Notes: generated by a model from the letters alone, not told the origin. DNA of 56,406 nt from Spartobacteria bacterium (GCA_039933235.1 JBDTOL010000141.1:1-56406); one strand, 5' to 3'; positions 1,497 through 56,406 are shown, counted from the first letter of the stretch. Translations and numbers: made by a program.

Positions 1497-2261
1497 CTAC
1501 ATCTGCACGACCGTCAGTTCCGGGCGGCAATTGAAGCGCACCGGATACATGTAAGTGCCGATCCCGACGTTGACGTAGAGCGGTCCGCCTAACGACTCGT
1601 AGCTGCCCTTTTGGTAACGTCCAACCCCGTAGGGCAGGACGAGCGCGCCGTAAAGGGGAAGGCGCACCTGGCCTCCGTGGGAGTGGCCGGCCAGGATCAA
1701 ATCGTAGCGCCGCCCGTCGAGCCGGTCGGCCTGGGTCGGATAATGGATGAGCAGGAGTTGCCGCGCCGCCCGCGGACCGGTCAGCGCATGCACTCCTCGC
1801 AATCCCATCCCGACAATCTCGAGATCGTGCTTCGGCAGGACCACGCTCCGGTCGACCAACCAGCCGCCGCCCGTCGCGTGAAACGCCTTGTAGTATTCGA
1901 TAAAACTGGCGCCGCTCCCGTAATCCCAGTTACCCGGGCAGCCATAGACCGGCCGCTCGATCCGCCGGATGAAGTCAAGCGCCTCCGGCGCGTAGCGTTT
2001 ATCCTCCAGCAGATCGCCGGTGAAGCAGACAAAGTCCGGGGCGAGGTCGTTTATCGTGGCGACGAGCTTACTCGCGAATTCGGCGTCGCCTTTGTAATGC
2101 AAATCGCTGAACTGCACGAAGCGACAGGTTGGCTGCGGGTGGAAATCGAGCTGCGTGATGTGTAGCCAGGTCGGCTCAACGAAACGGCCGTCGAGCCCGG
2201 CCACTGCGGGCAGCGCGACGAGGCCCAGGCCGAGAAACTGCCTCCGGCTCAGATTGCGCAT
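1497..2261 (-). CDS. Tat-exported metallophosphoesterase (calcineurin-like)
   Basis: 254 aa. Twin-arginine signal SRRQFLGLG. Phosphoesterase motifs FSDLHY, GDLLED, GNWDY, GHSHGG. Confidence 0.85.
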   Translation of the reverse strand: MRNLSRRQFLGLGLVALPAVAGLDGRFVEPTWLHITQLDFHPQPTCRFVQFSDLHYKGDAEFASKLVATINDLAPDFVCFTGDLLEDKRYAPEALDFIRRIERPVYGCPGNWDYGSGASFIEYYKAFHATGGGWLVDRSVVLPKHDLEIVGMGLRGVHALTGPRAARQLLLIHYPTQADRLDGRRYDLILAGHSHGGQVRLPLYGALVLPYGVGRYQKGSYESLGGPLYVNVGIGTYMYPVRFNCRPELTVVQM

Positions 2262-2267
2262 CGCTCG

Positions 2268-3308
2268 TTAGTCCGGGAAGGTATAAAGCCGCATGAGCGA
2301 TTTGCCGCTGTCGGTCAGACGCCCGGTGCTGCCACGGCCGGCGAGGTTGCCCCGGGTCAGCTTACGGTAATCGACCGGGCTCGATTTGACGTAGATGAGC
2401 TCAGCCGAACCGACCACGTTACTGCTCGGGGAGAGCCGCAGCGGCACACCGGCGCGGTTGAACGAAATCTCCCAGGCCGCCGGCTTGTCGTTAGGCGCAC
2501 CCTCGATCATCCACGGGTAGCGCTGCGGCAATTGGAAGTCGGGCGAATTAGGCACCACGACTTTGTAGAAGACTTCTTCGCTTTGCAGGAAGGCCGGAAG
2601 GGTGAGCGCGGAATTCCGGCGCAAGGCGAGGAGGAGCCGCGGCAGGTCGATCCCGACGAGGTTGAGACCGTTGTAGATACCGTGACGGTTCGGATCGCTC
2701 CGAAAAAAGGTGTCGTGCCACTGCTCAAAATTGTCGTTGATGAGCAGGTTGAGCTCCACATGAACGTGCGACCGCTCGCGGTTGATCCCGCTCCCGGTGT
2801 GGCCCATGACCGCGAGCTTTTCCCCCTGCCGCACGGGTTGCCCCGTCTCAACCGTGATCGTGCTGAGGTGCGCATAGAGACTGTAATAGGGCGAACCGCC
2901 CCAGCGATGCTCGACCACCACATAGCGCCCATAATTCGAGGCGCCCGCCGCCTGGTTGGTGTAGACCACTTTGCCCTCCGCGATGGCACGCACCTCGTCG
3001 AGCGGTTCGCCGCGCGCGTCACGTTGGAGCGGGCGAATGTCCATCCCTTCATGGAACCGGGTGTAGATCGTTCCGGCTCCCGTTTCGACCGGATCACGGA
3101 CGAAACCGTATTGCCCGCCCTGCCACGGAAAGGAAACGACGCCGTGCTGGTTGCGCTGGATGACCTGGTAGAACTCCGCCCCGTCGCCGCGCAACAGAGC
3201 CTTTTTATCGGTCGGGAGCACGAGGTTGAGCGGCGCATCTTCCGCCCCCGCAAGAACAGTCATGGCGAAATAAAACAGCAGAGCGCCGCTGCGCATCCAA
3301 CGACTCAT
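2268..3308 (-). CDS. M23 family metallopeptidase (secreted)
   Basis: 346 aa with an N-terminal signal-like segment. M23 motifs HEGMDI and HTGSG...SHVHVELN. Its ATG overlaps the stop of the upstream gene (ATGA at 3305-3308). Confidence 0.85.
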   Translation of the reverse strand: MSRWMRSGALLFYFAMTVLAGAEDAPLNLVLPTDKKALLRGDGAEFYQVIQRNQHGVVSFPWQGGQYGFVRDPVETGAGTIYTRFHEGMDIRPLQRDARGEPLDEVRAIAEGKVVYTNQAAGASNYGRYVVVEHRWGGSPYYSLYAHLSTITVETGQPVRQGEKLAVMGHTGSGINRERSHVHVELNLLINDNFEQWHDTFFRSDPNRHGIYNGLNLVGIDLPRLLLALRRNSALTLPAFLQSEEVFYKVVVPNSPDFQLPQRYPWMIEGAPNDKPAAWEISFNRAGVPLRLSPSSNVVGSAELIYVKSSPVDYRKLTRGNLAGRGSTGRLTDSGKSLMRLYTFPD

Positions 3309-3769
3309 TTCTTCTTCCGCCTACCGAGCAATTTCCAATCCTTGTTCATCAACTTGATATCCGACTCGGTCAGGCCGGAAGCGAGATAGATCTTCCCGTC
3401 CGAGACGCGGCGATCCACCTGCAGTTCCGTGATCGGGCGGCCATTGAGGAAAACGAAAAGGTAGGAGCCCCGCCGCTCCACGCTCAGGGTGTCGAGGATG
3501 GTGCGACCGTGATCATCAAGCTGGAGGAGAGCCGCGTAGCTGCCATCCGCGGCCCGGTAGGGATAAAATCCTTTCACGTCGTTCTCACTCAGCCAGGGGG
3601 TCTTTTCGATAAAAACGTCACGGCCGCTGAGCGATCGGATCGGTTGGGCAAAAACCGACCCATCGTTTGCGTTTGCCGCCACGTGGACGCGAAAAGTGCA
3701 ATGGCGCGGACGCGCCTCCACGCCGGCTGCGAGCAGGAGACTGAGCGCGGCGATGAGCAGGGTCCTCAT
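3305..3769 (-). CDS. hypothetical secreted protein
   Basis: The ORF track gives 3305..3838. The internal Met at 3769 starts a clean signal peptide (MRTLLIAALSLLLAAGVEA). No recognisable catalytic motif. Confidence 0.55.
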   Translation of the reverse strand: MRTLLIAALSLLLAAGVEARPRHCTFRVHVAANANDGSVFAQPIRSLSGRDVFIEKTPWLSENDVKGFYPYRAADGSYAALLQLDDHGRTILDTLSVERRGSYLFVFLNGRPITELQVDRRVSDGKIYLASGLTESDIKLMNKDWKLLGRRKKK

Positions 3770-3822
3770 GGCGGATTGATAAAGGGTTTGACAGCTTTTG
3801 CAACGTTGGCCTCTTTGGGCGG

Positions 3823-4335
3823 ATGCGACGAACCTCATTTCTGACTGTGGCGCTCCTCCTCGCGGCAGTCCCGGTTGTGCCGGCGCAGGAGAAGCGCGGC
3901 TGGCTCAGCCGGATGTTTCATCCCTTCAGTTCGTCGGAAAATATTCCGGAATACAAGGATCGCAGGTTGCGCGGTCTGATGCTCGCCGTCGAGCTGCCGG
4001 AAGGCGCGATCAAGCTGACCGAGATGCGCCAGCTGCCGGTCCACATCATCCTGACGAACAAGGGCGATGGGACCGTGGAACTGAGTTTTCCGAGCGAGCA
4101 ACGGATCGAGATCCTGCTCCACGACTCGGCCGGCCGGGTGGTCACGCGCTGGTCGGAGAATCGCGCTTTCGAGGAGCGGCCGGGCCACCTCCTGATTAAT
4201 CCTAACGAGTACGTAGAGTATTCCGAGACGATCGCCACCCGCGAGCTGGAACCAGGCAAAGTCTTCACGGTCGAAGTCGTGGTCCCGGCCTATCCGGAGC
4301 TGGACGCGCAACGAAAATCGATTACGGCTCCGTGA
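3823..4335 (+). CDS. hypothetical secreted protein (small beta-sandwich-like)
   Basis: 170 aa with signal peptide MRRTSFLTVALLLAAVPVVPAQ. Coding-like composition. No motif I can name with confidence. Confidence 0.55.
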   Translation: MRRTSFLTVALLLAAVPVVPAQEKRGWLSRMFHPFSSSENIPEYKDRRLRGLMLAVELPEGAIKLTEMRQLPVHIILTNKGDGTVELSFPSEQRIEILLHDSAGRVVTRWSENRAFEERPGHLLINPNEYVEYSETIATRELEPGKVFTVEVVVPAYPELDAQRKSITAP

Positions 4336-6526: not shown

Positions 6527-8227
6527 TCAGGTGGTGACGGATTTGATTTCGCCTTTGAAAATCTCAAGGGCCTCTTTGATTAATGGATCGTCTTTGAAGG
6601 AATCGAGCGAATTGTCGGACGTCACTTTGGGAGGGGGTGCGGCGCCGTAAACTTCGGTGGCGGGCGCGACCGGGGTGATATTTTCGTCCAAGCTCGGTTT
6701 TATGGTCCAGTCGGTGCCGGTAAGCTCCTTGAGCAGGGCTTCGAGAAAACTGCGGTTGTTAGGGCGGGAGAGCCCTTCCATGATCGTTTTTTCCGAAGGG
6801 GCAAAACCGAGCAGGAGATTGCGACCCTCCGTCCCGAGGTAGTGCGAGGCGTCGATCCAGGTCTTGATCAAGGGACGGCGGGCGTGGCAGAGCTCGACCG
6901 CTTCCTGCCACACGACGGCCATATCCGCGCCTTCGGATCTGCTTTTAGGCGGAGATTTCTCCGGAGCCGAAGCCGAGGCGGACGCGGGATTTGGAACCGG
7001 CGAAGGAGGAGGTGGGGCGGATTTCTTTTCCGCAGCAGGTTTGGGCGCGGGACGGGGGCTGGCCTTCGGGGCCGAAGGAACCGGTGCAGCGCCCCCGCGC
7101 AGGGCGGAGAGGTTTTCGATCACTTCATTGAGCGTGACCTGGCTGAGCGTCTGGATCGCTTTGATCACCGCGACTTCGAAATGCAGCTTCTTGTTCGGCG
7201 CCCATTTCATGCGGCCTTCCGCCTCGGCGAATTGCTCGATCAACTCGAGCAGCCGGTCGGTCTCGATCAGGCCGGCCTCTTCGCCTAACGACGACTGCAG
7301 CTCGGGCGCCGCTTCGTCCGCCAGGGCGTCTGGTTTTACCTTGTAGACGAGCAGGTCGCGCAAATGCGCGATGAGATCGCTCATGAGCTTCATCATCTCC
7401 TTGCCCGCGGCCGCCTGGTCGTCGAGCAGGCCGAGCGCGGCGGAGGTCTCGCCGCGCAGGATCTTTTCCGTGAACCCGGCGATGGCCTGTCCGCTGGTGA
7501 AGCCAAAGACATTCAGGACGTCGCTCTCCGCGACCGTCTCGCCACAAAACGCAACGAGCTGGTCGAGCATCGATTCCGCGTCGCGCAGGCCGCCATCCGC
7601 GCCGCGCGCGATGGCGTGAGCTGCGGCCGGCTCGAGGGTGATCTTCTCCTGCCCCGCGATGTATTGCAGGTGCTGCGCGATGAGATTGGCCGGGATGCGG
7701 TGGAGATCGAACCGCTGACAGCGGCTCAGAATCGTGATCGGCAGCTTGTCGGGCTCCGTCGTAGCCAGGCAAAAAATCACATGCTGCGGGGGCTCCTCAA
7801 GAGTCTTGAGCAAGGCGTTGGCCGCTTCCTTCGTCAGCATGTGCACCTCGTCGACGATGTAGATTTTGTATTTCCCCTTCGCCGGGGCGTAGCGCACGTT
7901 GTCCCGCAACTCGCGGACGTCGTCGATGCCCCGGTTGCTGGCCGCGTCCAGCTCGAGCACGTCGAGACTGTTGCCCGAGGCGATCTCCTTGCAGTTATCG
8001 CACACGCCGCAGGGAGTCGTGGTCGGTCCGTGGATGCAATTGAGCGCCTTGGCCAGGATGCGGGCGGTCGAGGTTTTGCCGGTCCCGCGCGGGCCGACGA
8101 AAAGGTAGGCGTGGGCGAGCCGGTTCTGCTCGACTGCATTCCGCAGCGTGCGCGTCACATGCTCCTGGCCGACGAGGTCGTCGAAGGTCTGCGGCCGGTA
8201 TTTTCGCGCAAAAACCTGGTAGCTCAC
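6527..8227 (-). CDS. dnaX: DNA polymerase III subunit gamma/tau
   Basis: 566 aa. N-terminus YRPQTFDDLVGQEHV, Walker A GPRGTGKTS, DEVHML, zinc module CGVCDNC, and a Pro/Ala-rich linker. Confidence 0.95.
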   Translation of the reverse strand: MSYQVFARKYRPQTFDDLVGQEHVTRTLRNAVEQNRLAHAYLFVGPRGTGKTSTARILAKALNCIHGPTTTPCGVCDNCKEIASGNSLDVLELDAASNRGIDDVRELRDNVRYAPAKGKYKIYIVDEVHMLTKEAANALLKTLEEPPQHVIFCLATTEPDKLPITILSRCQRFDLHRIPANLIAQHLQYIAGQEKITLEPAAAHAIARGADGGLRDAESMLDQLVAFCGETVAESDVLNVFGFTSGQAIAGFTEKILRGETSAALGLLDDQAAAGKEMMKLMSDLIAHLRDLLVYKVKPDALADEAAPELQSSLGEEAGLIETDRLLELIEQFAEAEGRMKWAPNKKLHFEVAVIKAIQTLSQVTLNEVIENLSALRGGAAPVPSAPKASPRPAPKPAAEKKSAPPPPSPVPNPASASASAPEKSPPKSRSEGADMAVVWQEAVELCHARRPLIKTWIDASHYLGTEGRNLLLGFAPSEKTIMEGLSRPNNRSFLEALLKELTGTDWTIKPSLDENITPVAPATEVYGAAPPPKVTSDNSLDSFKDDPLIKEALEIFKGEIKSVTT

Positions 8228-8373: not shown

Positions 8374-9597
8374 ATGAACGAAAGATTTCTCGTAGCGGGC
8401 ACCGCGCTATTTTTTTCTGCCGGCCTGCTCGTCGCGCGCGAGCCGCAAACCTCGCCGCCGCCCCAGCAGAGCATCCGGGCGCGCGCGCTTGGAATACCTT
8501 TTCCCGGCCAGCCGGGTAAATTTAACGCAATCACCGATGTAGCCGGAGTCGAGGTCGGATACACGACCCTTATTAGCGGCGAAGGAAAACTCGCGGTCGG
8601 CAAAGGGCCGGTCCGGACCGGGGTGACCGCGATCATTCCGCGCGGGCACGACTCGCTCAACGATCCGGTTTACGCGGGCACCTTCAGCCTCAATGGCAAC
8701 GGGGAAATGACCGGCACCGCCTGGGTCGAAGAGAGCGGTTTCCTGGAAGGACCAATCATCATCACCAACACCCACAGCGTCGGCACGGCGCGCGACGCGG
8801 CCATCGCCTGGCGTCTTTCCCACGGGGCGGCGGACAAAACCGGCTACTGGTGGAGCCTGCCGGTCGTGGCCGAGACTTGGGACGGCTGGCTCAATGACAT
8901 CAACGGCTTCCATGTAAAACCGGAGCACATCACCCACGCGCTCGATACCGCGGCGGGCGGGCCGATCGCGGAGGGCAGCGTCGGCGGCGGTACAGGTATG
9001 ATTGCCTACGAATTCAAAGGTGGCACCGGGACCGCCTCGCGCGTCATCCCGGTGGCGGAGGCTGCCGACGCCGGTCGCTCCTACACCGTGGGCGCACTGG
9101 TCCAGGCCAACTGCGGCCGCCGCTCACTCCTCACGATCGCCGGCGTTCCGGTCGGAAAAGAAATTCCGGGCTCCATCTACCCGAAAGACACCGGCTCGAT
9201 CATTATCGTGGTCGCGACCGATGCGCCGCTCCTGCCGGGCCAATGCAAGCGCCTGGCCCGGCGCGCCAGCCTGGGATTGGCTCGCACCGGCAGCATTTCC
9301 GGGAACGGATCGGGCGATTTGTTCATCGCCTTCTCCACCGCCAATCCCGGCGCGGCCGATCCCGCGCAGCCGACCCACACGGTGCAGACCGTGCCTAACG
9401 ACCGGCTCGATCCGCTCTTCGATTCCACCGTGCAGGCGGTCGAGGAGGCGATCGTCAACGCGTTGGTCAATAATCGGAGCATGACCGGGCGCGACGGCCA
9501 TGAGGTGCCGGCCCTGCCGCATGATCAGCTGCGACAGATCATGCAGAAATACAACCGAATCGAGACCGGCAAGCCTGCCGCGTCGGCTTCGCCCTAA
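8374..9597 (+). CDS. P1/S58 family peptidase (DmpA-like aminopeptidase), secreted
   Basis: 407 aa with a signal-like N-terminus. DmpA-type blocks GPVRTGVTAI, GGGTGM, IIVVATDAPL. Confidence 0.8.
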   Translation: MNERFLVAGTALFFSAGLLVAREPQTSPPPQQSIRARALGIPFPGQPGKFNAITDVAGVEVGYTTLISGEGKLAVGKGPVRTGVTAIIPRGHDSLNDPVYAGTFSLNGNGEMTGTAWVEESGFLEGPIIITNTHSVGTARDAAIAWRLSHGAADKTGYWWSLPVVAETWDGWLNDINGFHVKPEHITHALDTAAGGPIAEGSVGGGTGMIAYEFKGGTGTASRVIPVAEAADAGRSYTVGALVQANCGRRSLLTIAGVPVGKEIPGSIYPKDTGSIIIVVATDAPLLPGQCKRLARRASLGLARTGSISGNGSGDLFIAFSTANPGAADPAQPTHTVQTVPNDRLDPLFDSTVQAVEEAIVNALVNNRSMTGRDGHEVPALPHDQLRQIMQKYNRIETGKPAASASP

Positions 9598-10031
9598 CGA
9601 CCGATATCCTCATCCCAGAGCTCGGGATGGGCCGCGATGAATTGCGTCATCATTTCGACGCATTCCGGCAGATCGAGATCGATCACCTCCACGCCGTGAC
9701 TCCGCATGAAGTCCGGTCCGCCGGGGAAAGTGCGACTTTCGCCCACGATCACTTTGGGAATGCCAAACTGCACCACGGCGCCGCTGCAGAGGTAGCACGG
9801 CATGAGCGTGGAATAGAGGACCGTGTCGCGAAAACTTCCGATCCGTCCGGCGTTGCGCAGGCAATCGATCTCCGCGTGCGTCACCGGGTCGATTTCCTGC
9901 ACGCGCTTGTTGTGGCCGAGAGCGAGCAACTCGCCGCCGCGCGCCAGGGTCGCGCCGATCGGGATCCCGCCTTCGCTCAGACTTTTCCGCGCCTGCGCGA
10001 TGGCCGCATCCATCAATTCTTTGTCGTTCAT
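9594..10031 (-). CDS. nucleoside/cytosine deaminase (CMP/dCMP-type zinc deaminase, Fcy1-like)
   Basis: Motifs HAEIDC...PCYLCSG. The C-terminal tail FIAAHPELWDEDIGR resembles yeast Fcy1. I chose the start at MNDKEL (10031) rather than the ORF-track start at 10097. Confidence 0.8.
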   Translation of the reverse strand: MNDKELMDAAIAQARKSLSEGGIPIGATLARGGELLALGHNKRVQEIDPVTHAEIDCLRNAGRIGSFRDTVLYSTLMPCYLCSGAVVQFGIPKVIVGESRTFPGGPDFMRSHGVEVIDLDLPECVEMMTQFIAAHPELWDEDIGR

Positions 10032-10776: not shown

Positions 10777-10780
10777 GGAG

Positions 10781-11864
10781 TTGCTGTCAATCAGCGAATT
10801 ATATCTAACATCGCATTCCGCAGAGGGTCTTTATCGCTATCAGCCAACCGGCATCTACTTCGCCCGAATCCGGTTCACCGGCAAGCTCTACCGCCGGTCC
10901 CTAGAGACACCGACAAGACGCTTGCAAAGCGGAAGCTGGCGGACTTTCGGAACGATCTGGAACGGACTGATGCACGGGCGGGAAAACGACCTTTGCCGTG
11001 GTGCTCGACAGTTTCGAGGCGACGCTGGGGCATCTCGCGCAGGGCACGCAAGAACAAGCGGGCGATCATCGCGAAGCACCGGGAAACCTTTTTCGGAATC
11101 GGGGCGCTTCCGCTGCGGCACTTCCGACCGAGCGACGTTGCCAGATGGCTCGCCCGCCAATGCGCAAACGGGAGCGCCGCGTATTACACCGATGCTCTGA
11201 GCACGATCCGACAGGCGCTCGATCTGGCGGTCGATCACCGGATCATCGCAGAGTCGCCCGCCGCGAAATTGAAGTATCGGAAGCGGAGCAAACCGATCCG
11301 CCAGACGCCCACGTTTGAGCAGTTCCAGGCGATCGTCGCGAGCATCCGGTCGCAGCCCTTTGACCGGGAGCGTAACGATTCGGGCGACTTCGTGGAGTTC
11401 ATGGGCCTGAGCGGATTGGGACAAGCGGAAATGGCGTCGCTGGTTCGCAGTGACGTTGACCTGGACGCGGGCGCATCACGGTCTTCCGGGCCAAAACTTC
11501 AGAGAAATTCGTCATTCCGATCTTCCCACAACTGCGCCCGTTGGTCGAAGGTTGTGTGACGCAAGGCGCACGATGACGGCTTATTTCCGATTTACGAAGC
11601 GCGCAAGGCGTTCGCCAATGCCTGCCAACGACTCGGCTTCTCTCACCGATCGCTGCGCCGCATGTTCATCGTACGCTGCATCGAGAAGGGCATCGACGTA
11701 AAGCTAACCAGCAAATGGCAGGAGCATTCAGACGGCGGAAAGCTCATCCTCCGCACTACAGCCACATCAACCAACCGCACGAGCAACGGATGGCTCAGTT
11801 ACTGAGCGATGACGAGCCGGAGAACGTCGTCTTAGTTCACTCCTCGGCCATAGCCTCACGATGA
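10781..11864 (+). pseudogene. tyrosine recombinase (phage-type integrase), decayed by multiple frameshifts
   Basis: Integrase-like segments are spread over three frames. These include LYRYQPTGIYFARIRFTGKLYRRSLET, then ...FEQFQAIVASIRSQPF...FVEFMGLSGLGQAEM, then RITVFRAKTSEKFVIPIFPQLRPL. The C-terminal part is ...SDGGKLILRT / YSHINQPHEQRMAQLL, carrying the catalytic Tyr region. It starts 5 nt from the tRNA-Val 5' end. Confidence 0.75.
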
Positions 11865-11931
11865 GATGTTATAACCGGTAGCGAGATTGCGGTCTCTGTC
11901 TCGTAGCGGTGATTCGCATTCGGGCCGACGA

Positions 11932-13044
11932 CTACGGACCAAATGCCAGGTCAAAGGGCGCCGACCCGACATCAGCAATTGTGCCAGAGACGGTCAGCGA
12001 CGGAATATCGATAACCGTTACCGTCGTGTCGGTGGAGTTGCACACGTACAGTTTCTCGTCGTTTGGGCTGCCCAGCATAGTCCAGGGATGGTGTCCGACG
12101 GGGATCGTTGCGCTGACCGTATGCGTGGCGGTGTCAATGGCCGAAACAGTGTCGGAATATCCATTTTCTACGAAGGCCTTCTTTCCATCATGCGTAATTA
12201 CCACTCTCTGGGGAAGGTTTCCAGTAGGGATGGTAGCGACCACACTCAATGTGGTGGTATTGATGACAGAGACTGTCCCATCTTCCTGGTTGGTCGCGTA
12301 AATCTCCTCGCCGTTAGGCGTAATGGCAATTCCGATCGGTGACCGTCCAACACCAATGGTCGTGATCACTTGGTTCGTCGCCGTGTCGATGGCGGATACG
12401 GAGTTGTCCCCGTTGTTGGTGACGTAGACGCGGTCACCCGCGGGAGAGATGCAAAGGCGGCGGGCGGCACCCCTGGTGGGGATATTCGTTACTCGGTAGG
12501 TGTTGGTATTAATCACGTTCACTAGTCCCTCGGAAGTGTTCGCGACATATGCGAAGCGCCCATTCGGCGTGAACAAGATGTCTTTGCACTGGTGCCCGGG
12601 GAGAAGGACAGTGGTGATGACTAGGTTGGTTGCGGTGTCAATGACGGCGACGGGGCAGTGACCATTGAGGGCAGCTTGATGCACGACGAAAAGACGTCTA
12701 CCATCCGGCGTGATACTGCTCTCTCCGGGTACATTGTACACCGGAATGGTGGCAATGTTCGTCTGCGCCACCGTGTCTAGAACCGAGATGCTTGCAGAAA
12801 GCCCGTTGGAAACAAATGCCTTGCGCCGATCCCGTGTCATGGCAATACGAAGCGGGAAACTGCCCACGGGGATTTGGGTGACTACCTGGTTGGTCGAGGT
12901 GTCGATCACAGCAACGTCATCCGAGTATCTCGAGGGGACAAAAAGGGAGGGCTGGCGCGTGGGCGACATCTGCGCCGGTTGGGCCAAAGCCGAGGATGTA
13001 AAGGCGAAACCAATCAATAGCAAAGGGAGGCGATATGTTTTCAT
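11932..13044 (-). CDS. YVTN-family beta-propeller repeat protein (secreted), paralog 1
   Basis: Signal peptide MKTYRLPLLLIGFAFTSSALA. Repeated roughly 40-aa units of the type V.VIDT.TN.V..TIPVG..P.GIAITPDG...YV.N. Start chosen at 13044; the ORF track gives 13122. Confidence 0.85.
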   Translation of the reverse strand: MKTYRLPLLLIGFAFTSSALAQPAQMSPTRQPSLFVPSRYSDDVAVIDTSTNQVVTQIPVGSFPLRIAMTRDRRKAFVSNGLSASISVLDTVAQTNIATIPVYNVPGESSITPDGRRLFVVHQAALNGHCPVAVIDTATNLVITTVLLPGHQCKDILFTPNGRFAYVANTSEGLVNVINTNTYRVTNIPTRGAARRLCISPAGDRVYVTNNGDNSVSAIDTATNQVITTIGVGRSPIGIAITPNGEEIYATNQEDGTVSVINTTTLSVVATIPTGNLPQRVVITHDGKKAFVENGYSDTVSAIDTATHTVSATIPVGHHPWTMLGSPNDEKLYVCNSTDTTVTVIDIPSLTVSGTIADVGSAPFDLAFGP

Positions 13045-13131
13045 CGGTGACAGAAAACAAGTCTTACCGGGCAAGCGTCCTCTCAGCGCCGTCGCCACAC
13101 GATCTTGGAGCGCAATTCGCATTCGGGGTCG

Positions 13132-14217
13132 CTAGGGGCCAAATGCCAGGTCAAAGGGCGCCGACCCGACATCAGCAATTGTGCCAAAGACGGTCAGCGA
13201 CGGAATATCGATAACCGACACAGTCGTGTCGGTGGAGTTGCACACGTACAGTTTCTTATCGTTTAGGCTGCCCAGCATAGTCCAGGGATGGTGTCCAACG
13301 GGGATCGTTGCGCTGACCGTATGCGTGGCGGTGTTAATGGCCGAAACAGTGTCGGAGTATCCATTTTGTACGAAGGCCTTCGTTCCATCATGCGTAATTA
13401 CCACTCTCTGGCAAAGGTTTCCGGTAGGGATGGTCGCGACCACACTCAATGTGGTGGTATTGATAACGGAAACTGTCCCATCCTGCTGGTTGGTCACGTA
13501 AAGCTCCTGGTCGTTGGGGGTAATGGCAATTCCGATCGGTCTTTGTCCAACAGGGATGTCCGCGATCACTTGTTTCGTCGCGGTGTCGATGGCGGATAAG
13601 GTATCGCTCCCGTTGTTGGGGGTGTAGACGCGGTCACCCGAGGATGAGACGGTAAGACGACGGGGGCGACCCCCGGTGGGGATACTCGTTACCTGATAGG
13701 TAGCGGTGTCAATCGCGTCCACCTCTCCATTGGAATTGTTCGAGACCCAGGCGAAGCTTCCATCCGGCGAGAAGACGATGTCTTTGAGCTGACTCCCGGG
13801 GAGAAGGACAGTCCTGATGACCTGATTGGTTGCCGTATCAATGACATAGACGGGGCAGGTTCCATTGGAGCCAGCAGCTTCATGGACGACGAAAAGACGT
13901 CTACCATCCGGCGTGATAGCGCTCTCCCCGGGTACATTGCCCACCGGGATGGTGGCAATGTTCGTGCGCGTCACCGTGTCTAGAACTGAGACGTTTGCGG
14001 AAAGCGCGTTGGAAACAAAAGCCTTGCGCCGATCCGGTGTGATCGCAATACGAATCGGGAAACTGCCTACGGGGATTTGGGTGACTACCTGGCCGGTCGA
14101 GGTGTTGATCACAGCAACCTCATCGGAGTATCTCGCGGGGACAAAAAGGGATCCGGCCAAAGCCGAGGAGGCAAAGGTGCAAACGATCAATAGCAAAGGC
14201 AGAAGACATCTTTTCAT
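13132..14217 (-). CDS. YVTN-family beta-propeller repeat protein (secreted), paralog 2
   Basis: Same architecture as paralog 1, with signal peptide MKRCLLPLLLIVCTFASSALA. The 3' ~370 nt are near-identical to paralog 1 at a 1200-nt offset. Confidence 0.85.
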   Translation of the reverse strand: MKRCLLPLLLIVCTFASSALAGSLFVPARYSDEVAVINTSTGQVVTQIPVGSFPIRIAITPDRRKAFVSNALSANVSVLDTVTRTNIATIPVGNVPGESAITPDGRRLFVVHEAAGSNGTCPVYVIDTATNQVIRTVLLPGSQLKDIVFSPDGSFAWVSNNSNGEVDAIDTATYQVTSIPTGGRPRRLTVSSSGDRVYTPNNGSDTLSAIDTATKQVIADIPVGQRPIGIAITPNDQELYVTNQQDGTVSVINTTTLSVVATIPTGNLCQRVVITHDGTKAFVQNGYSDTVSAINTATHTVSATIPVGHHPWTMLGSLNDKKLYVCNSTDTTVSVIDIPSLTVFGTIADVGSAPFDLAFGP

Positions 14218-14518
14218 GATATTTTTAGTACAGTTTGCCCAGCAGAGTTGGCATACTTCCCCGGAGATGAGGCGTAAGACCGGCAGAATTCCGGTGACTG
14301 GCGCGAACAGAAACCCTTTCATCATTGAGACCTCCGATTTAACCGGAGCCTCGCTCGACAAGGCCGGCGCGATCCACCCTCGGAAGCGGGTCGGGATTAT
14401 CTAGTGGGGCTGGGGTAGATCGCGATTAAAGCGGCCCGCCGGGAGTGGTGTCAAGCTTAATTTTAGATATTTTTCTTCAGTCCGCCCCGAGCGAATCCCA
14501 CAGCGGCCCCAGATCCCG

Positions 14519-14725
14519 ATGTCGAGACTGAACCGTTACCCGATGCGCCTGCCTGCTTTACTCGCCGTCGTCCTCGCGCTGGCCACCGTCCGCGCCACCG
14601 CTTCCGCGCACAAGGCCCCGGCTGCAAAACCATTCGAGCGGATCGACGGCTGCCGGCTCGTGCCTACAACTCAGGAAAATCGGACCTTCTTAGCGCAACT
14701 GAGAATCAGACACCTATTTGCATGA
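14519..14725 (+). pseudogene. possible truncated remnant of a secreted protein gene
   Basis: A signal peptide plus KPFERIDGCRLVP, after which the sequence degenerates into lower-GC non-coding-looking DNA. Weak call. Confidence 0.25.
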
Positions 14726-15032
14726 ACACTCAAGCTAACATGAGATTGGTCTCGCCGACTGGTCAGCCGCCACGACGGCGCGCCCGCGGTGGCCGATCCT
14801 GTTCGCTGGCTGAGGGACTGAACTCTTACTGTTTCTGCGCCAGGTGCAACTCGCTGAGCCGCATGAGTAAACGATGTTTTAGCAGTTTCGCTCGAATAAT
14901 CGAAGTTAAGCAGCGTTTATTGTTTGTGGGATCCTAGCGCCAGCGCGATCAGGCCTGTGGCGCGTTCGACAATCCGCACTCTCACCTACGTCGCAGGCAA
15001 GATAAAACCGCCCATTGGCCAGCGCGCAGTTT

Positions 15033-15066
15033 CTGTAGACGCTTCGCTGCGCGAAGCGCGGGCTAC
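15033..15066. repeat. PE-2 short palindromic repeat, copy b
   Basis: Sequence ctgtagacgcttcgctgcgcgaagcgcgggctac. It shares GTAGACGCTTCGC...GCGAAGCGCG with the copy at 20144-20178. Confidence 0.65.
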
Positions 15067-44058: not shown

Positions 44059-44910
44059 ATGGATATAAGGCTTCTTCTCGTCCCGTACGACTCCGGCCAG
44101 CGCAACGTGCGAATGGGGGCAGGGCCCGAACATCTCCGGTCGGCCGGCCTCGAGGGACAGCTCACCGCCCAGGGGCACCGGGTCGACCTCCAGGTGATCG
44201 AGCCCGCCTCAATGAACTGGCGGGCAGAAGTGCAAACCAGTTTTGAGCTAATGCGCGCAGTGGCGGAGCACGTGCGCGCCGCACGCTCCGAGGGTCGGTT
44301 CCCGATCGTACTCTCCGGCAATTGCCTTTCTGCGGTTGGCGTCATCTCAGGCCTCGGCGCCCAGACCGGCGTGATGTGGATCGATGCCCACGGCGATTTC
44401 AATACGCCGCAGACCACGATGAGCGGTTTCCTCGATGGGATGACCCTGGCAACGGCGACTGGGCGTTGCTGGCTGGAGCTGGCACGCAGCATCGAGGGCT
44501 TCGAGCCGGTCAAGGACAAGGCGGTCGTGATGTTCGGCACGCGCGATCTCGATCCGGGCGAAGGCCCGGCCCTGGCCCGCAGTGAGATCGTTAGGCTAAG
44601 CGCAGAGGCGAAGCTTGAGGAGATCGAGAAGGTTCTTCAGTCGATCCGCCCCACGATGGAAAGATTCTACGTCCATCTCGACATGGACGCGCTCGATCCC
44701 AAGGAAGGCCGGGCCAACGGCTATACTGCACGAGGCGGATTCTCCAGCGAGAAACTGCAGACGCTCCTCCGCGCGATCGCCGGGAATCTTCCGGTCGAGG
44801 CGCTCACCATCGCCAGTTACGATCCGTCCTATGACAGCGAAGGCAAAGTCTGCGCGGCGGCCTTGGAGGCTGCGGTGACCGTGCTCGGTGGCAGCCCGTC
44901 AGCACGCTGA
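44059..44910 (+). CDS. arginase-family hydrolase (arginase/agmatinase/formimidoylglutamase)
   Basis: 283 aa with Mn-binding blocks IDAHGDFNTP, GFLDGM, VHLDMDALDP. Confidence 0.85.
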   Translation: MDIRLLLVPYDSGQRNVRMGAGPEHLRSAGLEGQLTAQGHRVDLQVIEPASMNWRAEVQTSFELMRAVAEHVRAARSEGRFPIVLSGNCLSAVGVISGLGAQTGVMWIDAHGDFNTPQTTMSGFLDGMTLATATGRCWLELARSIEGFEPVKDKAVVMFGTRDLDPGEGPALARSEIVRLSAEAKLEEIEKVLQSIRPTMERFYVHLDMDALDPKEGRANGYTARGGFSSEKLQTLLRAIAGNLPVEALTIASYDPSYDSEGKVCAAALEAAVTVLGGSPSAR

Positions 44911-47510: not shown

Positions 47511-48692
47511 TCAATCGCACAGTTCCACGGTCACGCTTGCGCCGGCCGCAAAGGTGCTTCCGGGCGCCGCGCGCAGGAGCGCGTTAGCCCGGCTCAGACC
47601 AAAAAGAGCATGCGATTCCTGACGTCCGGTAAGAGTAAAAACGCCATCCTGCAATCGGCCGCGCAGATAGTGTGGTCGATCGCCGCTGTTGGTCACCTCT
47701 GAGGCGAGCCGCGCGGGGACTTCGGGCAGGCCGAGGTGTTCCCCCGCTGCGCCACGCATTTGTAAAAGGGCTGGGCGGACAAATTTCAGAAAGGTGACAA
47801 AAGCCGAGACCGGGTTTCCCGGCAGGCCAAAAATGCAGCAACCACCGGCCCGGCCAAAGAGGAACGGCTTGCCGGGCTTGAGCGCGACCCGCCAGAGATC
47901 GATCTCCGCGCCCAGAGCGCGCAAGGCCGGTTTAACCAAATCATGGTCGCCGACCGAGACGCCACCGCTCACGATCAGGGCATCGGTCTCCAAGCCGCGA
48001 CGAAACAGTTCCGTCATGCGCTCGAGAGCGTCTGGGCAATGCTCGACCAGCCGCACGTCCGCTCCGGCGCGGCGGGCCAGAGCGTGGAGCATGATCGCGT
48101 TGCTCTCGAAGATCTGCCCCGGCTGCAGCGTTCCTCCGGGCCTAACGAGTTCGTCGCCGGTCGAGACGATCGCGACCGCGGGCGTTCCCCCCACCTCGAT
48201 CTCCGCCAGTCCCTGCGCGGCGAGGAGCGCCATTGTCTGGGCGGTGATCGGTTCGCCGCGGCCAAGAATTTTTTGCCCCTCCGCGAGGTCAGCTCCCTGC
48301 CGCCGGATGAATTCACCAAGCTCCGCAGCGCACTGCGCGGTGATGCGCTCCTCCTCGCGGTGGACGTCCTCTTGCATGATCACCGCGTCGGCACCCGCGG
48401 GGAGCGGCGCGCCGGTGAAGATGCGGATCGCTTCCCCTGCTCCGACCGTCAGGCCGCGCGCGGCGCCGGCCGGTTGCTCGCCCACGACCCGCAGGATGGC
48501 GCCCTTTCCGCACGAGTCCGCCTGGACCGCATAGCCGTCCATCGCGGAATTATCGAAGGCCGGGAGCGGTCGCACCGCGCCAACGTCCCGGGCAGAGATT
48601 TGGCCTAACGATTCGATCAGCGTGGCTCGGCGGGCAGGTAGCGCCGTGACCCGGCTCAACACTGCGGCTAAGGCCTCGGCTTCGCTGGTCAT
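47511..48692 (-). CDS. moeA: molybdopterin molybdotransferase
   Basis: 393 aa with MoeA blocks (PAFDNSAMDGYAV, IVSTGDEL, SGGVSVGDHD, PGNPVSAFV). Confidence 0.92.
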   Translation of the reverse strand: MTSEAEALAAVLSRVTALPARRATLIESLGQISARDVGAVRPLPAFDNSAMDGYAVQADSCGKGAILRVVGEQPAGAARGLTVGAGEAIRIFTGAPLPAGADAVIMQEDVHREEERITAQCAAELGEFIRRQGADLAEGQKILGRGEPITAQTMALLAAQGLAEIEVGGTPAVAIVSTGDELVRPGGTLQPGQIFESNAIMLHALARRAGADVRLVEHCPDALERMTELFRRGLETDALIVSGGVSVGDHDLVKPALRALGAEIDLWRVALKPGKPFLFGRAGGCCIFGLPGNPVSAFVTFLKFVRPALLQMRGAAGEHLGLPEVPARLASEVTNSGDRPHYLRGRLQDGVFTLTGRQESHALFGLSRANALLRAAPGSTFAAGASVTVELCD

Positions 48693-50748: not shown

Positions 50749-53700
50749 GATGTAACGCCGCGAAGGGCTCCTCCAGTTCTGCGTTCCACCTCGGACTACC
50801 GAAATAAACTCCCCGTCGGGTGCTGTGCGAGGTCTCGGCGAAAGCCTGCTGCCGCTCCAGGCGACTCTGGCTATTGACACCCTTGCGGATGCAATAGCGA
50901 ATGCGGCAGGAGCGCAAATCCGCGATCAAACTGCAGCCCCCTTCGAACACCATTTTTGGTCCGCGCGGATCGTCCGGATCCGCCGGCCGGGGTCGGCGCT
51001 GCAAAATGCCGAGCAGGAGTTGCGGGTTCATTCCGCCATCCGGGCTGGTCCGAAAGGCGATCCTGGCGGAGCGCACTTCGAAGGTCAGCTTCGGGTCGAG
51101 TCCGAGGTAGGCCGCGTCGCTGACGCCGGCCGGGCCGGACAGGAAATGTGCTTTCATCCACTCATGGATCTGCCACCGCATCGAGCGTTCGAGGTGGAAC
51201 AGCGCTTCGCGCGATTCGCTGTAGGTGTGCTCTTGGGCGTACTGCCGGAGCTGAATGAGGGCGGCTTCCAGCTGGGGTGAAGGCGTGAGGCCGTCTTGTT
51301 CCAAGTTGCGCCAGAGCAGGCTCTCCACGCTCAACGTCCGGACCTCCCGGGGATAGAGCGCGCGCTTGCGGAACGCCTCGATGAAGGCGGTGCGATAGCC
51401 GAGATCATCGTCGGGCACGAGATCGAAGTCGGCCGTGATGATGGCGCGCAGATATTCGCCAAAGGTGATGTCGACCGGTGGGCAATAATCCAAGGCCCGC
51501 ACGCACATCATCAAAACGTGATCGGCGGACTTGGCTGCTTCGACGGCGAGCCGGTTGACCAGGTCGGGATGGATTGCGTCGGGCTGAACCACTCCGGTGC
51601 CGCCGGTGGCCAGCCGCAGCAAATCTGCCGTGCGACGCTCGTAAATGGAGAGGAAGGCGTCAAAAACAGCCGCCACCAGGATGGCGCCACGCCGATGCGG
51701 TTCGAAGGTGTTTTCGTACTCGTCCGGCTTGGGCTGATGCGGCTTCCAGGTTCCATTTTCGATTCGGCCAATGGCGTCGCGTAACGCCGTGCGCAGCCCG
51801 GTGCCGCGGCCGAACTCACCCGCCAGTTGGCCGAGGAGGTTTTCCTGCGAGCGAACCGCGCCGCGGGTACTGGAGATTTGGTGCCGCAGGATTTCCGGAA
51901 AAGTAAAGTGCTGAAAGAGCGCCACCAGATCGGCAAAGGCCTCGTGAAAGGCATGCACGTCCGGATTGGTGGGGCTGAGGAAAGAGCGATTCATCCCATC
52001 GAGGAGCGCGTGCGTCGTTTCGTGGGCGATGATGTCATGCGAGAGACAAGAGAAAACCATCCCGCCGGCCATGTGCTCACCGGGAGCATCGGCGGACGCT
52101 CTGAAGTATCCAAAAAGCAAAGCGACTTTGGCCGGCGTATAGTAGGCGTTTCGCTCGCGCAACCCGTGCGGATAAATCCGCAGGCGCTGCACGAAATTGG
52201 AATCGTTTTTCGGCTTTCGAGGATCGGGCGAAGGCCCGGGGCGCCACAAGCTACGGCGACCGAGTGCGCGCTCGAACTTGTGTATTGTTAGGCTGGTGAC
52301 CGCATACACCATCTGTTGATGGAACTGCGGCGTGCCTGCGCTTGGGGCAAGGCCATCCTGCGCCAGCAATTTTGGATCGTCCAGGCGGACCGGTTCGTAG
52401 AAACAATCGCTGCCCGGGTCGAAATCGATCACTTCAAGATATTCGCCGCGTGGCCCGGGTTCGAGATTCTCCCAGGGCAACTGCAGCGTGATCTCGCTAA
52501 TGCCGACGGTCTTGAGATCGATCGCGAGACTGGGATCGAGGGAGAACCCCCGCAGCCTCCGGAAAGGCGGCGTCGCAACGGTGAAGGCCCTCGGCCCCGG
52601 CGTCATTGAAGGCTCCAGTTTCTGATCGACCGCAGGATTCTTGCGTGCGACCCGCGTCCGTTTGCCTCTGGTAGGACCGCGCGGTGTTTGCGGGAGCAGG
52701 CTCTCGACATACCGAACCAATCGGTCGGAGGCCAGAGGATGATCGTGCAACGCTTCGAGGTAAGCGAGCCGTTGCGATCCAGAAATCGCCTCCGGTGGAG
52801 AATCGGGATCGGGCAGAACGGTTTCGAACGGATTGGGGACGTCGGTCCGTGGCCACCGCTGCGCCAGTTGAGTCGCTTCGAGTTCCAGCATGCGGCTGGC
52901 AGGGTCCGCTACGAGACCGAAACCGCTCAGCGCGCGCAGGAACGGAAATATGGCGCGGTCTGGCGGCGTTTTTTGCAGCGCCGAAGCTTTCGGTGGTGCG
53001 AACGCCAAGGCGCGCGCCGATTTGAGGATGCCGTTGCCGAGTTTCTCGGAGCTGCCTCCGTCGGCGGATTTGTCGGCGCTGGCAAATAAGCCACGCCGGA
53101 CCGCTTCCACCCGCATCCAATTCTCCGGATATTTCGCGATCTCGGTTAAGTGCCGTTGCAGATACAACGCGGCCGCGGCGGCAACCTGGGGCGTGGCGGC
53201 TGACGTTCCCTGGCCGTTCATGTCGACGATATCCGCGCAGCCCAGTTCGGCCCAGGGGATGTTAGGCGTGAAAGCGGCAAGAGCCGTCGCCATCTTACTG
53301 GCCGGTCCCCAATTCCCCTGCATCGTCCCGAACGACAGTCCGTAGTAAGGGTGCGCATTCGCCATCACGCCGCAGGCCGCGATGACCCGGCGGAAGCGCG
53401 CCGGATAAACGATGAACCGGGTCGGCACTCCAAACGGCCCGGCGGAAAAGTTGTTGCCCGCCGCGCACACGTAAACGATTCCCGCTTCATAGGCCTTGTT
53501 CACCGCATCCGCCCACGCCTGCGAGGCCACGCCGCCCATGCTCATTGACATGACATGCACCCGCGTCGCTTCCTTTGCGCAGAGCTCGGCCGCGTAATTG
53601 ATCCCCGCGGCCACGGTGCTGGTATAAAGCTGGACGACGGATTTTCCCACCCGGACAGGAACGATCTCCGCCTGCGGAGCGCCGCCGATTAAATCATCGA

Positions 53701-54646: not shown

Positions 54647-55240
54647 ATGAAGGTATGGAAGGCTGCCCTGCTCCTGGCCGCGCTCGCGGCAGTTATTTGG
54701 TGGTTGTCGCCGCAGCGCGCGATCAAGCCTAACGAACCGGGCGTGGTCGAAATCAACTTCACCGGCGACGCCGGGGCAAACAAGGCGGCGTTGGATGAGG
54801 CTTTTCTGGCCTTCGAAACGGAGAGCCGGGCGCTTCACGAAAAAGATCCGCATCAGCCGATTTATCGCGTCATCGCCGGGCAAAGCGCCTCGCGCGATCA
54901 GACCGCGGATCCTCTTGAGGACGCAGCCCGGCTCGATGGATGCGGTTTTTTTCGCATCTACTGGCACATCATGCTCCCGCTCGTTAGGCCAACCCTGGCC
55001 GCGATCGCGATCTTTACCTTTCTCGCGACCTGGAACGAATTCACGATGCCGCTCATCTACCTGGCCAATCAGCGGATCTATCCGCTTTCCTTCGGCCTTT
55101 ACGCTTTCCAGGTGCAGGTCTCGATTCCCGGCACGGCCAAGGGCATGGGCATGGTAATGGCCGCCTCCTTCCTCATAATGCTGCCAGTGATCGCGATCTT
55201 CCTCTTTGCCCAGCGCTACTTCCTGCGCGGGTCACCCTGA
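54647..55240 (+). pseudogene. chimeric remnant of a carbohydrate ABC transporter operon (binding-protein N-terminus fused to the permease C-terminus)
   Basis: About the first 85 aa look like a solute-binding-protein leader (MKVWKAALLLAALAAVIWWL...). The rest is the EAA-loop-to-C-terminus of a BPD-type permease (EDAARLDGCGFFRIYWHIMLPLVRP...WNEFTMPL). Confidence 0.65.
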
Positions 55241-55348
55241 CCGGGATGAAGGGATAGGCCGTGTGATGCACTGGCTCACCGCAAAACCCCCGCCGCCCAA
55301 ATTCGCTGAGGACAGCGGACGCTACAGTATCGGAATAAGAAAAGCTCG

Positions 55349-55939
55349 TTAGGGCGCCTTGTCCGCCTCGATGTCGATCGAGATCGTGACCTCTTCGCCG
55401 ACTACCGCGGTGCCTTCGACCGCTTTGTTCCAGGTCAACCGATAGTCGCCGCGCTTGATCGGATCGGGCGTCACCTGCCAGCCGCTGATTTGACTGCCGC
55501 CCATCCCTTTTCCCTTGCCGAGGAACTTGACGTGCAACGTGATCTCCTTGGTCACGCCATGCATGGTGAGTTCGCCAACGATGTCGCCGCTATCGGCGCC
55601 GGTTTGCTTCACGTTCTTGCTCTTGAAAGTGATCGTCGGGTGCTTCGCGACATCGAAGAAATCGCCACTGCGCAGGTCCGCATCGCGTTTCTCATTCTTG
55701 GTATCGACGCTGGCGGCATCGATCGTGGCGGTGACGGAAGATTTTTCCGGATGATCGGGATCGACTTTGATCGTGCCTTCAAATTTTTTGAAGCTGCCGT
55801 TCACGTAACTGAAAAAATGCCGCACCTTGAAACTGATCGCCGAATGGACGGGATCGATCTTGTAGGTGTCTTCGGCCTGGGCGGTGAGGGTGGAACCGCA
55901 GAGCAAAGCGGCGGCGAGCGGGGACAAAGATTTTTTCAT
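55349..55939 (-). CDS. YceI family periplasmic protein
   Basis: 196 aa with a signal peptide. YKIDPVHSAISFKVRHF and a typical YceI lipocalin-like sequence. Confidence 0.88.
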   Translation of the reverse strand: MKKSLSPLAAALLCGSTLTAQAEDTYKIDPVHSAISFKVRHFFSYVNGSFKKFEGTIKVDPDHPEKSSVTATIDAASVDTKNEKRDADLRSGDFFDVAKHPTITFKSKNVKQTGADSGDIVGELTMHGVTKEITLHVKFLGKGKGMGGSQISGWQVTPDPIKRGDYRLTWNKAVEGTAVVGEEVTISIDIEADKAP

Positions 55940-56044
55940 GGCTTCGTGACGCTAACGAGATGCCGCCGGCTGACTACAGATTTTGTCAGGGAAAAGGTTA
56001 CGACAGGCCAAATTCACGAAGCGCGAGGCCAAACGACCGCGCGA

Positions 56045-56406
56045 TCAGGGCAGCGGGATCACGTAGTTCGTTAGGATTCCCCTGGTCCGATCGAAGGTCC
56101 TGGCCGGTGTAGTCGTTGCATCGGTGACGAGAAACGCGATCCCGCCGACGCAAGGCGGGCCGACGTGCTTGAACTTCACCTGGCCCCGGGAGTTGGTCGT
56201 GCCGGAGACGATTTCATCGAGCCAATAGTCGTCCAGGAAATGGCCGGTAATCTTCACGCCCGCCAGCGGAGCGCCTGCCTCGTTCGTGACGGTCAACTGC
56301 GCCTGCGCCTGGGCACTTCCCTGATCGCAAAAGGCGGGGCCCTTGCCCTTCATCCGAATGCTGGTCACCTGGATGCAATTGCTGGTGCAGGGCTGAGCCG
56401 GAACCA
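56045..56406 (-). CDS. C-terminal part of a larger protein (Ig-like / carboxypeptidase-regulatory-like domain), truncated by the window edge
   Basis: The reading frame stays open upstream of the GTG at 56368 to the end of the window. Sequence LTVTNEAGAPLAGVKITGHF...TNSRGQVKFK. Confidence 0.5.
   Translation of the reverse strand, partial: VPAQPCTSNCIQVTSIRMKGKGPAFCDQGSAQAQAQLTVTNEAGAPLAGVKITGHFLDDYWLDEIVSGTTNSRGQVKFKHVGPPCVGGIAFLVTDATTTPARTFDRTRGILTNYVIPLP

Follow-up and report, generated by a model that had tools for sequence, protein, structure and literature searches.

The stretch of DNA analysed here, 56,406 nucleotides from a Spartobacteria bacterium (GCA_039933235.1, JBDTOL010000141.1) and called the window in its full length, contains housekeeping genes as unrelated as dnaX, purF, purL, purM, pntA, gmd, uppP and moeA, together with genes for an aminotransferase and an amidohydrolase, all of which host copies of one short word, the 8-mer CCTAACGA, or with a preceding G the 9-mer GCCTAACGA. 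The original prediction, made from the window itself, had singled out this word as a massively over-represented tag that behaves like an uptake signal. The window holds exactly 29 exact copies of CCTAACGA, 16 on the plus and 13 on the minus strand; every coordinate listed for them in that prediction proved correct, as did the estimate that about 20 of the copies follow a G (20 of 29). As set out below, one lineage of the Chthoniobacterales (Verrucomicrobiota) carries (G)CCTAACGA as a tag at the level of its DNA. The individual copies are given in Table 1.

Table 1. Copies of the word, its G7A variants and the tRNA-Val island in the window. Loci of relatives are cited by L numbers; ORF, open reading frame.
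Feature	Position	Strand	Context
CCTAACGA	1588..1595	+	antisense in metallophosphoesterase gene (1497-2261 -); TCG TTA GGC = S-L-G
CCTAACGA	2488..2495	-	sense in M23 peptidase gene (2268-3308 -); CCT AAC GAC = P-N-D
CCTAACGA	4201..4208	+	sense in BsuPI-domain gene (3847-4335 +); P-N-E
CCTAACGA	7284..7291	+	antisense in dnaX (6527-8227 -); S-L-G
CCTAACGA	9394..9401	+	sense in S58 peptidase gene (8374-9597 +); P-N-D
CCTAACGA	9593..9600	+	TAA at 9595-9597 is the stop of the S58 peptidase gene
CCTAACGA	16713..16720	-	sense in sulfatase-Ig gene, L-T frame; sole copy within the tRNA-Val island
CCTAACGA	20307..20314	-	sense in purM (20228-21241 -); P-N-D; orthologous column also in L022
CCTAACGA	22124..22131	+	antisense in purF; TCG TTA GGC = S-L-G; common to 6 sister species; outgroups V-L-G
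CCTAACGA	23499..23506	+	antisense in purL; S-L-G; common to L002, L003, L007, L009
CCTAACGA	26635..26642	-	antisense in class-III aminotransferase gene (26200-27615 +); S-L-G; also in L003, L022
CCTAACGA	27295..27302	+	sense in class-III aminotransferase gene (26200-27615 +); P-N-E; also in L003, L022
CCTAACGA	32473..32480	-	TAA (complement of 32476-32478) is the stop of pntA (32476-33612 -)
CCTAACGA	32984..32991	+	antisense in pntA; S-L-G
CCTAACGA	33682..33689	-	non-coding, upstream of pntA; its TAA would end a doubtful ORF (33685-34212 -)
CCTAACGA	34361..34368	-	antisense in gmd ORF; GTC GTT AGG = V-V-R
CCTAACGA	36099..36106	-	antisense in uppP/bacA (35687-36553 +); TTC GTT AGG = F-V-R
CCTAACGA	40105..40112	-	sense in radical-SAM gene (39209-40435 -), L-T frame; frame assigned by hand from coordinates
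CCTAACGA	40683..40690	+	sense in DUF362 gene; P-N-D
CCTAACGA	41647..41654	+	sense in squalene/phytoene synthase gene; R-L-T-N
CCTAACGA	42653..42660	+	sense, near 5' end of amidohydrolase gene (42606-43949 +); C-L-T-T
CCTAACGA	43536..43543	+	sense in amidohydrolase gene (42606-43949 +); P-N-D
CCTAACGA	44588..44595	-	antisense in arginase-family gene; I-V-R
CCTAACGA	48141..48148	+	antisense in moeA (47511-48692 -); L-V-R
CCTAACGA	48604..48611	+	antisense in moeA (47511-48692 -); S-L-G
CCTAACGA	54728..54735	+	sense in ABC-permease ORF (54647-55240 +); P-N-E
CCTAACGA	54981..54988	-	antisense in ABC-permease ORF (54647-55240 +); L-V-R
CCTAACGA	55346..55353	-	its TAA is the stop of yceI (55349-55939 -)
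CCTAACGA	56068..56075	-	sense in ORF 56045-56404 (-); I-L-T-N
CCTAACAA variant	6756..6763	-	G7 to A
CCTAACAA variant	19275..19282	+	aldo/keto reductase gene; TTG TTA GGC = L-L-G; L009 column has TCG TTA GGC
CCTAACAA variant	19992..19999	+	aldo/keto reductase gene; L-L-G, conserved in L006, L019
CCTAACAA variant	39630..39637	+	
CCTAACAA variant	42226..42233	+	
CCTAACAA variant	52285..52292	-	
tRNA-Val island	10777..19129		8.35 kb between direct repeats

Dinucleotide-preserving shuffles of the window gave a mean of 0.74 copies of CCTAACGA (maximum 3), a second-order Markov model predicted 0.79 and resampling of codons from window-wide usage 0.90. When synonymous codons were shuffled within genes, keeping every protein, 1.04 ± 0.96 copies were expected in the predicted coding sequences (maximum 6 in 1000) and 24 were observed. 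Both kinds of null model proposed along with the original prediction, Markov and codon-shuffled, are thereby covered for the window, where the 8-mer is enriched about 25-40-fold at a density of 0.51 per kb; a maximal-order Markov null was uninformative because its 7-mer sub-words are made up almost wholly of motif copies. The 9-mer GCCTAACGA occurred 20 times in the window with 0.30 copies expected and is its top-ranking 9-mer, CCTAACGA sharing the second rank among 8-mers beside pure G+C words. Taking window and relatives together, GCCTAACGA is about 40-140-fold above chance. Such an excess does not fit restriction-modification targets, which are typically avoided.

Nothing beyond the raw count speaks for a dispersed repeat such as a repetitive extragenic palindrome or a miniature inverted-repeat transposable element (REP/MITE), for a repeated protein motif or for base composition, and we consider the chance that one of these explains the copies to be negligible. 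All of them are ruled out by the composition- and codon-aware null models, which yield about one copy, by flanks that are unconserved past four bases, by the use of four frames and by the location of 28 of the 29 copies in or touching ORFs of unrelated families. Flanks that are unconserved beyond position -4 mark it as a word, as opposed to a repeat element. A true dispersed repeat element (REP/MITE-like) looks quite different: the 22-kb locus L069 of a relative contains 13 copies of CAGGTAGGGAC, all of them intergenic and with conserved flanks. The over-represented words GGTAGGGA in the same locus and CCCTACA in several loci were likewise rejected as words of this kind and are mainly intergenic repeat elements, and 155 overlapping A8 windows in L040 represent a long poly-A run in a contig of a metagenome-assembled genome and are probably an assembly artefact.

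The word is not palindromic, as it differs from TCGTTAGG, and copies in its two orientations are interleaved along the 56 kb, with no switch point. A split as balanced as 16:13 has a probability of 0.016 under a 75:25 skew and of about 1e-6 under a 90:10 skew (binomial; the replication direction of the window is not fixed, no usable GC-skew or skewed-oligomer signal having been found in it). The strong strand polarity that had been named beforehand as a sign of another kind of signal is thus missing, and the stated lack of bias relative to transcription holds as well, with a sense to antisense ratio of genic copies of 13:12 (own tally, the copy at 40105 being assigned by hand). Pooled strand counts across the relatives were 82:123, which we do not take as polarity because syntenic loci share inherited sites. 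A polar signal, either a Chi-like hotspot of RecBCD/AddAB or a KOPS-like sequence (FtsK-orienting polar sequence), would also be a short, over-represented and lineage-specific word enriched in core genes. Chi and KOPS are strongly polar and few-fold enriched, and the 40-140-fold enrichment seen here without polarity lies far above the modest over-representation known for Chi, which makes this explanation highly improbable.

The way in which the copies are accommodated in genes separates selection on the DNA from selection on the protein. Of the six frames, one sense frame is closed by a TAA in the word and one antisense frame by a TAG; the remaining four are free of stops, and all four are used: CCT AAC GAN (sense frame 0, P-N-D/E) by nine copies, nnC CTA ACG Ann (sense frame 2, L-T) by four copies plus the hand-assigned one at 40105, TCG TTA GGN (antisense frame 0, S-L-G) by eight and nTC GTT AGG (antisense frame 1, V-R) by five. 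The coding contexts named in the original prediction were all recovered: the phosphoesterase reads S-L-G, gmd V-V-R and uppP F-V-R at the word, P-N-D/E is found elsewhere, and the L-T lies close to the N-terminus of the amidohydrolase. In addition, the TAA of the word serves as stop codon of three solid genes, coding for the S58 peptidase (9593), PntA (32473) and YceI (55346); a fourth gene that had been counted in this group (33682) rests on a doubtful ORF. The word forces the rare codons TTA, AGG, CTA and GTT, and in 324 kb of DNA from the lineage 15.8% of all TTA and 21.6% of all AGG codons lie inside it.

Relatives were collected by a PurL scan with one genome per species, which returned 80 loci (best identity 85%) with titles that nearly all name Chthoniobacterales, Spartobacteria, Verrucomicrobiota or Candidatus Udaeobacter; the window is therefore assigned to a bacterium of the Chthoniobacterales. 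In a neighbour-joining tree of PurL, the window and the loci L001-L007, L009, L012 and L022 form a monophyletic motif clade, across which the density of CCTAACGA ranges from 0.45 to 1.03 per kb. The ten sister loci contain 133 copies of the 8-mer with 2.0 expected and 107 copies of the 9-mer with 0.8 expected, and therefore the word is not a peculiarity of the window but occurs in ten sister species at 65-138 times expectation. The excess of GCCTAACGA over expectation is 138-fold in the window clade and falls to 31-fold in neighbouring clades of about 60% GC and 17-fold in a Udaeobacter-like clade. As negative control, 677 kb of distant bacteria (metagenome loci fetched with PurA) contained three copies, with 6.2 expected. 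The PurA scan of metagenomes returned no close relatives that could have provided an unlinked locus of the motif clade.

When purL, purF, purM and the aldo/keto reductase gene were aligned by codons, many copies fell in orthologous columns of more than one species, with turnover between presence and absence. The invariant PurF peptide S-I-V-R-G-T is encoded with ATC GTG CGC in all outgroups and with ATC GTT AGG in six species that carry the word, and two V-V-R sites of PurL are likewise recoded from GTC GTG CGC to GTC GTT AGG; the recoding of GTG CGC to GTT AGG in these invariant peptides is confined to the motif clade. At other sites the word is created by amino acid replacements, namely K to R (CTC GTT AGG), P to T or S (CTA ACG Ann) and V to S (TCG TTA GGC). 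Where two members of the clade share the same peptide, their DNA is identical for 80% of motif 8-mers and for 29% of control 8-mers, a large effect, although the species pairs are not phylogenetically independent. The analyses show that it is at the level of DNA that the word arises and is maintained, by synonymous recoding to rare codons, by some replacements and by the use of its TAA as stop codon. The proposal of selection on DNA rather than on protein is thus strongly supported by the frames, the recoding, the codon-aware null model and the DNA identity at shared peptides.

Retention differs between the members of the clade. At homologous DNA, the density in the window is about half that of its sisters (0.51 versus 0.92 per kb), and a comparison with L002, L003, L006, L009 and L022 over the columns of purL, purF and purM reveals several sites at which the relatives keep perfect copies and the window shows one-off versions (GTC GTG AGG, TCG CTA GGG). 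This pattern suggests that the pressure for the word has weakened in the lineage of the window.

Among 204 pooled copies from the lineage, 79% directly follow a G and 15% a C (position -1), 45% have C at position -2, and 45% have T at positions -3 and -4, compared with about 20% in the background, giving the rough consensus T-T-c-G-CCTAACGA with A tolerated at position 7. The preferences for T at -4/-3 and for G at -1 are found in every coding frame class and also in non-coding copies and therefore belong to the DNA signal. Within the word itself, the requirement is sharp. The 24 one-off variants together occur at chance level (83 observed and 77 expected in the clade, 39 and 29 in the window), and the single enriched variant is CCTAACAA, in which G7 is replaced by A (15 observed and 0.8 expected in the clade, 6 and 0.3-0.43 in the window); without it, 68 observed copies of the remaining variants in the clade face about 76 expected, which is no excess. 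The six one-mismatch variants of the original prediction are indeed enriched (6 versus 0.43 expected), with two coordinates corrected to 6756-6763 on the minus strand and 19992, instead of 6765 and 19991.

The variant bears on the idea that the word arose as a side effect of a sequence-specific modification or repair system, as is suspected for the highly iterated palindrome HIP1 of cyanobacteria; a methyltransferase or mismatch-correction activity recognising the word would bias mutation or gene conversion towards it. CCTAACAA, equivalent to TTGTTAGG, corresponds to a C-to-T change at a CpG of the complementary strand, as cytosine methylation followed by deamination would give, and HIP1 (GCGATCGC) is generally known as a hyper-abundant, lineage-specific 8-mer that turns up in every frame and whose orthologous sites are conserved more than neutral change would predict, just like the word described here. 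Unlike HIP1, a palindrome with GATC and CGATCG methylation sites, and unlike typical Dcm/Vsr targets, the word is asymmetric, and contiguous non-palindromic methyltransferase targets of 8-9 bases are very unusual. A converting process should also deplete the one-off variants, which are found at chance level when G7A is left aside. Furthermore, some CCTAACAA copies fall where the protein keeps leucine (TTG TTA GGC) and not serine (TCG), in several species in common. At least some of them look like the best fit that the protein allows and not like products of decay. Altogether, we regard an origin by modification or repair as improbable.

De novo word statistics for each locus revealed that the Udaeobacter-like sister clade (L028, L030, L035, L041, L045, L046, L057, L071, L072 and L078 among others) has a different word, c-AAGATCGACA-t, that is cAAGATCGACAt. 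Its core AGATCGAC is present in 167 copies in 274 kb of Udaeobacter-like loci, with 73:94 copies on the two strands and in five frames, mainly two of them, and the 10-mer AAGATCGACA reaches 65 times its expectation exclusively in this clade. An unlinked purA locus (L083) is rich in the Udaeobacter word as well. cAAGATCGACAt appears to be another tag of this type, again specific to one clade. A weaker word, CCGGCTCGA, was observed 18 times in the window with 2.3 copies expected, on both strands (9:9) and in several frames (e.g. within 9402-9410); its enrichment is about 5-8-fold in the Chthoniobacterales clades of about 60% GC, about 4.7-fold in the related clades and 1.4-fold in Udaeobacter-like loci.

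Acquired DNA offers another view on the tag. A tRNA-Val gene occupies positions 10705-10776, and a 43-nt piece of the tRNA sequence (10735-10777) is repeated with 93% identity at 19087-19129, enclosing an island that is absent from all 80 related loci, in which the gene order is otherwise contiguous (S58 peptidase, orf9594, MaoC, (aldo/keto reductase), purM). With a GC content of 0.55-0.57, the island has the least typical codon usage in the window and contains one copy of CCTAACGA where 4-6 are expected. Its genes include a paralogous pair coding for beta-propeller proteins (11932-13044 and 13132-14361, with stretches that are 90-94% identical) and a gene for a 990-amino-acid sulfatase with three immunoglobulin (Ig)-like repeats; no integrase is visible in it. 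Across the clade, genes in the quartile with the least typical codon usage, stratified by locus, contain 13 copies with 29.1 expected (P < 5e-5), which corresponds to a density of 0.31 versus about 0.87 per kb. The claim that the word is nearly absent from foreign segments therefore holds for the tRNA-Val island, the one segment recognised as foreign independently of the word, and for genes with atypical codon usage across the clade. It does not extend to the gaps in the window, as gaps of 7.1, 6.1 and 5.2 kb match a random placement of 29 points (P = 0.51), nor to the two other segments that had been considered foreign, 28208-30698 and 48612-54727, around which att-like repeats were sought and none were found. 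For 48612-54727 the argument from the scarcity of the word is circular, because the segment is bounded exactly by two flanking copies. A tRNA-Ser(GCT) gene at 49108-49195 adjoins a 553-amino-acid ORF without Pfam match and a 1250-amino-acid S8 subtilase with low codon typicality; a duplicated fragment of this tRNA was not found, and an island at this site is only a suspicion. Outside these segments, a LigD-type gene (45008-46759, minus strand) without a copy of the word combines phosphoesterase and ATP-dependent ligase domains and has no match to a polymerase domain, which suggests a capacity for non-homologous end joining.

Known words with comparable properties are the DNA uptake sequences (DUS) and uptake signal sequences (USS), which are described from Neisseriaceae and Pasteurellaceae only, two families of Proteobacteria, as words of 9-10 nt whose copies number hundreds to thousands. 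They come in dialects that differ between clades, favour some reading frames and avoid those with a stop, and are enriched in the core genome and missing from genes acquired recently; about half of all DUS and USS are arranged in inverted-repeat terminator pairs (bioRxiv 10.1101/2025.10.24.684340, October 2025). Gaps in DUS have even been used to find integrative and conjugative elements (PMC7371117). The statistical likeness to both systems that the original prediction had pointed out is strongly supported, with about 0.5-1 copies per kb in both orientations and a mostly genic location. Like the DUS of Neisseriaceae (GCCGTCTGAA and its dialects, recognised by the minor pilin ComP as receptor), the word is non-palindromic, comprises 9-12 bases, occurs on both strands and in each permissible frame, has a weaker upstream extension of its core, differs between related clades, is depleted in inserted DNA and causes codon and amino acid changes in proteins, and perfect copies vastly outnumber any excess of near-matches. 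Unlike DUS, it has an unrelated sequence, belongs to the phylum Verrucomicrobiota, was found without terminator-like inverted pairs or association with terminators and lies almost exclusively within genes in the window, and the word of the sister clade is unrelated and not a dialect differing by one or two bases. With the USS of Pasteurellaceae (AAGTGCGGT and ACAAGCGGT) it shares a 9-base core with a weak T-rich flank, the mostly genic and strand-symmetric distribution, the existence of two unrelated-looking types in sister clades and the accommodation by changes of the proteome. USS differ in being often associated with terminators, in the several-fold enrichment of their one-off variants, of which a single one is enriched here, and in their demonstrated function. 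Sharpness in itself is in character for an uptake sequence, because in Kingella oralis allowing one mismatch raised the count of the kingDUS by only 21% (PMC3630211).

Because among known phenomena only DUS and USS combine these properties, we consider a putative uptake signal to be the best-supported mechanism for GCCTAACGA, unproven as it is and held with slightly less than even confidence. DNA bearing the word would be taken up preferentially by a competence machinery based on type IV pili and would then undergo homologous recombination, with alleles containing the word replacing alleles without it more often than the reverse, a molecular drive as proposed for the DUS of Neisseria and the USS of Pasteurellaceae. 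The different word of the Udaeobacter-like clade would correspond to a different uptake specificity. One genome of the Chthoniobacteraceae reportedly has genes for type IV pili but none for flagella (PMC11596606), and for this reason the outer part of such an uptake machine is plausible; the machinery as a whole is inferred from this one paper on a member of the family.

Several observations weigh against an uptake signal. Neither the window nor the related loci, 1.2 Mb in total, contained a gene for competence or pili; regular expressions describing prepilin leaders, PilB/PilT boxes, DprA, ComEA and secretin motifs gave no match in the related loci, which does not amount to a negative answer. 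The open-access text searched contained no report of DNA uptake, transformation or competence in Verrucomicrobia, Chthoniobacter or Udaeobacter, and it did not mention the word in the role of a tag, matches being primers and unrelated sequences. No close inverted pair of copies, and none resembling a terminator, exists in the window, the 324 kb of lineage loci contain a single inverted pair, 55 bp in extent, and the placement of the copies is almost wholly genic, with about one of 29 in the window being intergenic. A drive model should leave some excess of near-matches, and G7A is the only one. Within the window alone, the depletion of the word in foreign DNA is not significant. Finally, an intracellular binding site that is under selection and functions in either orientation could yield every statistical property described above. 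Our confidence is limited to the level stated because competence genes are not in the sequence, terminator pairs are absent and a binding site would give the same statistics.

Such a site, read by an abundant intracellular protein independently of its orientation and kept by a function of the chromosome with no role in uptake, is the most serious alternative, to which we assign roughly one chance in four. The protein could be a nucleoid-organising factor, a cofactor of recombination or repair, or one for which the word is a mark of 'self', keeping a nuclease or a defence system in check. In its favour, orthologous positions are retained well beyond synonymous expectation, and the strict requirement for all 8-9 positions without excess of near-matches suits a binding site under purifying selection at least as well as drive; terminator pairing is absent, and depletion in foreign DNA is expected of any host-specific mark. 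Two-fold differences in density between sisters at orthologous DNA are unexpected for such a site, as is the replacement by an unrelated word in the sister clade. We know of no nucleoid or repair site that occurs about once per kb as a non-palindromic 9-mer enriched 40-140-fold on both strands, and the known motifs (Chi, KOPS, matS, parS and the sites of SlmA and Noc) are much less frequent, or else polar or palindromic. In one specific form, which we judge somewhat less probable still, the word would be the readout of a so far undescribed, orientation-free intracellular system for marking self-DNA and not an uptake signal: a protein would read an asymmetric word of 9-12 bases about once per kb, individual clades of the Chthoniobacterales would have gone over to words without relation to each other (GCCTAACGA and AAGATCGACA), and the pressure of self-marking would suffice to rewrite codons across the core genome.

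What appears to be new is a word with the features of an uptake sequence in a different phylum, with an unrelated sequence and without association with terminators, its membership among uptake sequences being unproven. With a likelihood that we place just below one half, it may represent the third independent family of DNA uptake sequences and the first outside the Proteobacteria. Relatives of Udaeobacter in the Chthoniobacterales are among the most abundant bacteria in soil. If the uptake signal is real, it would suggest natural transformation with a preference for DNA of the own kind in a dominant and largely uncultured soil lineage, and it would provide an independent third case on which drive and selection theories of uptake specificity can be tested. 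As a marker, the tag may help to spot foreign DNA and to bin contigs, and placing the word on transforming DNA could possibly make these bacteria genetically tractable. If the word is not an uptake signal, it reflects an unexplained genome-wide constraint that is strong enough to recode invariant peptides.

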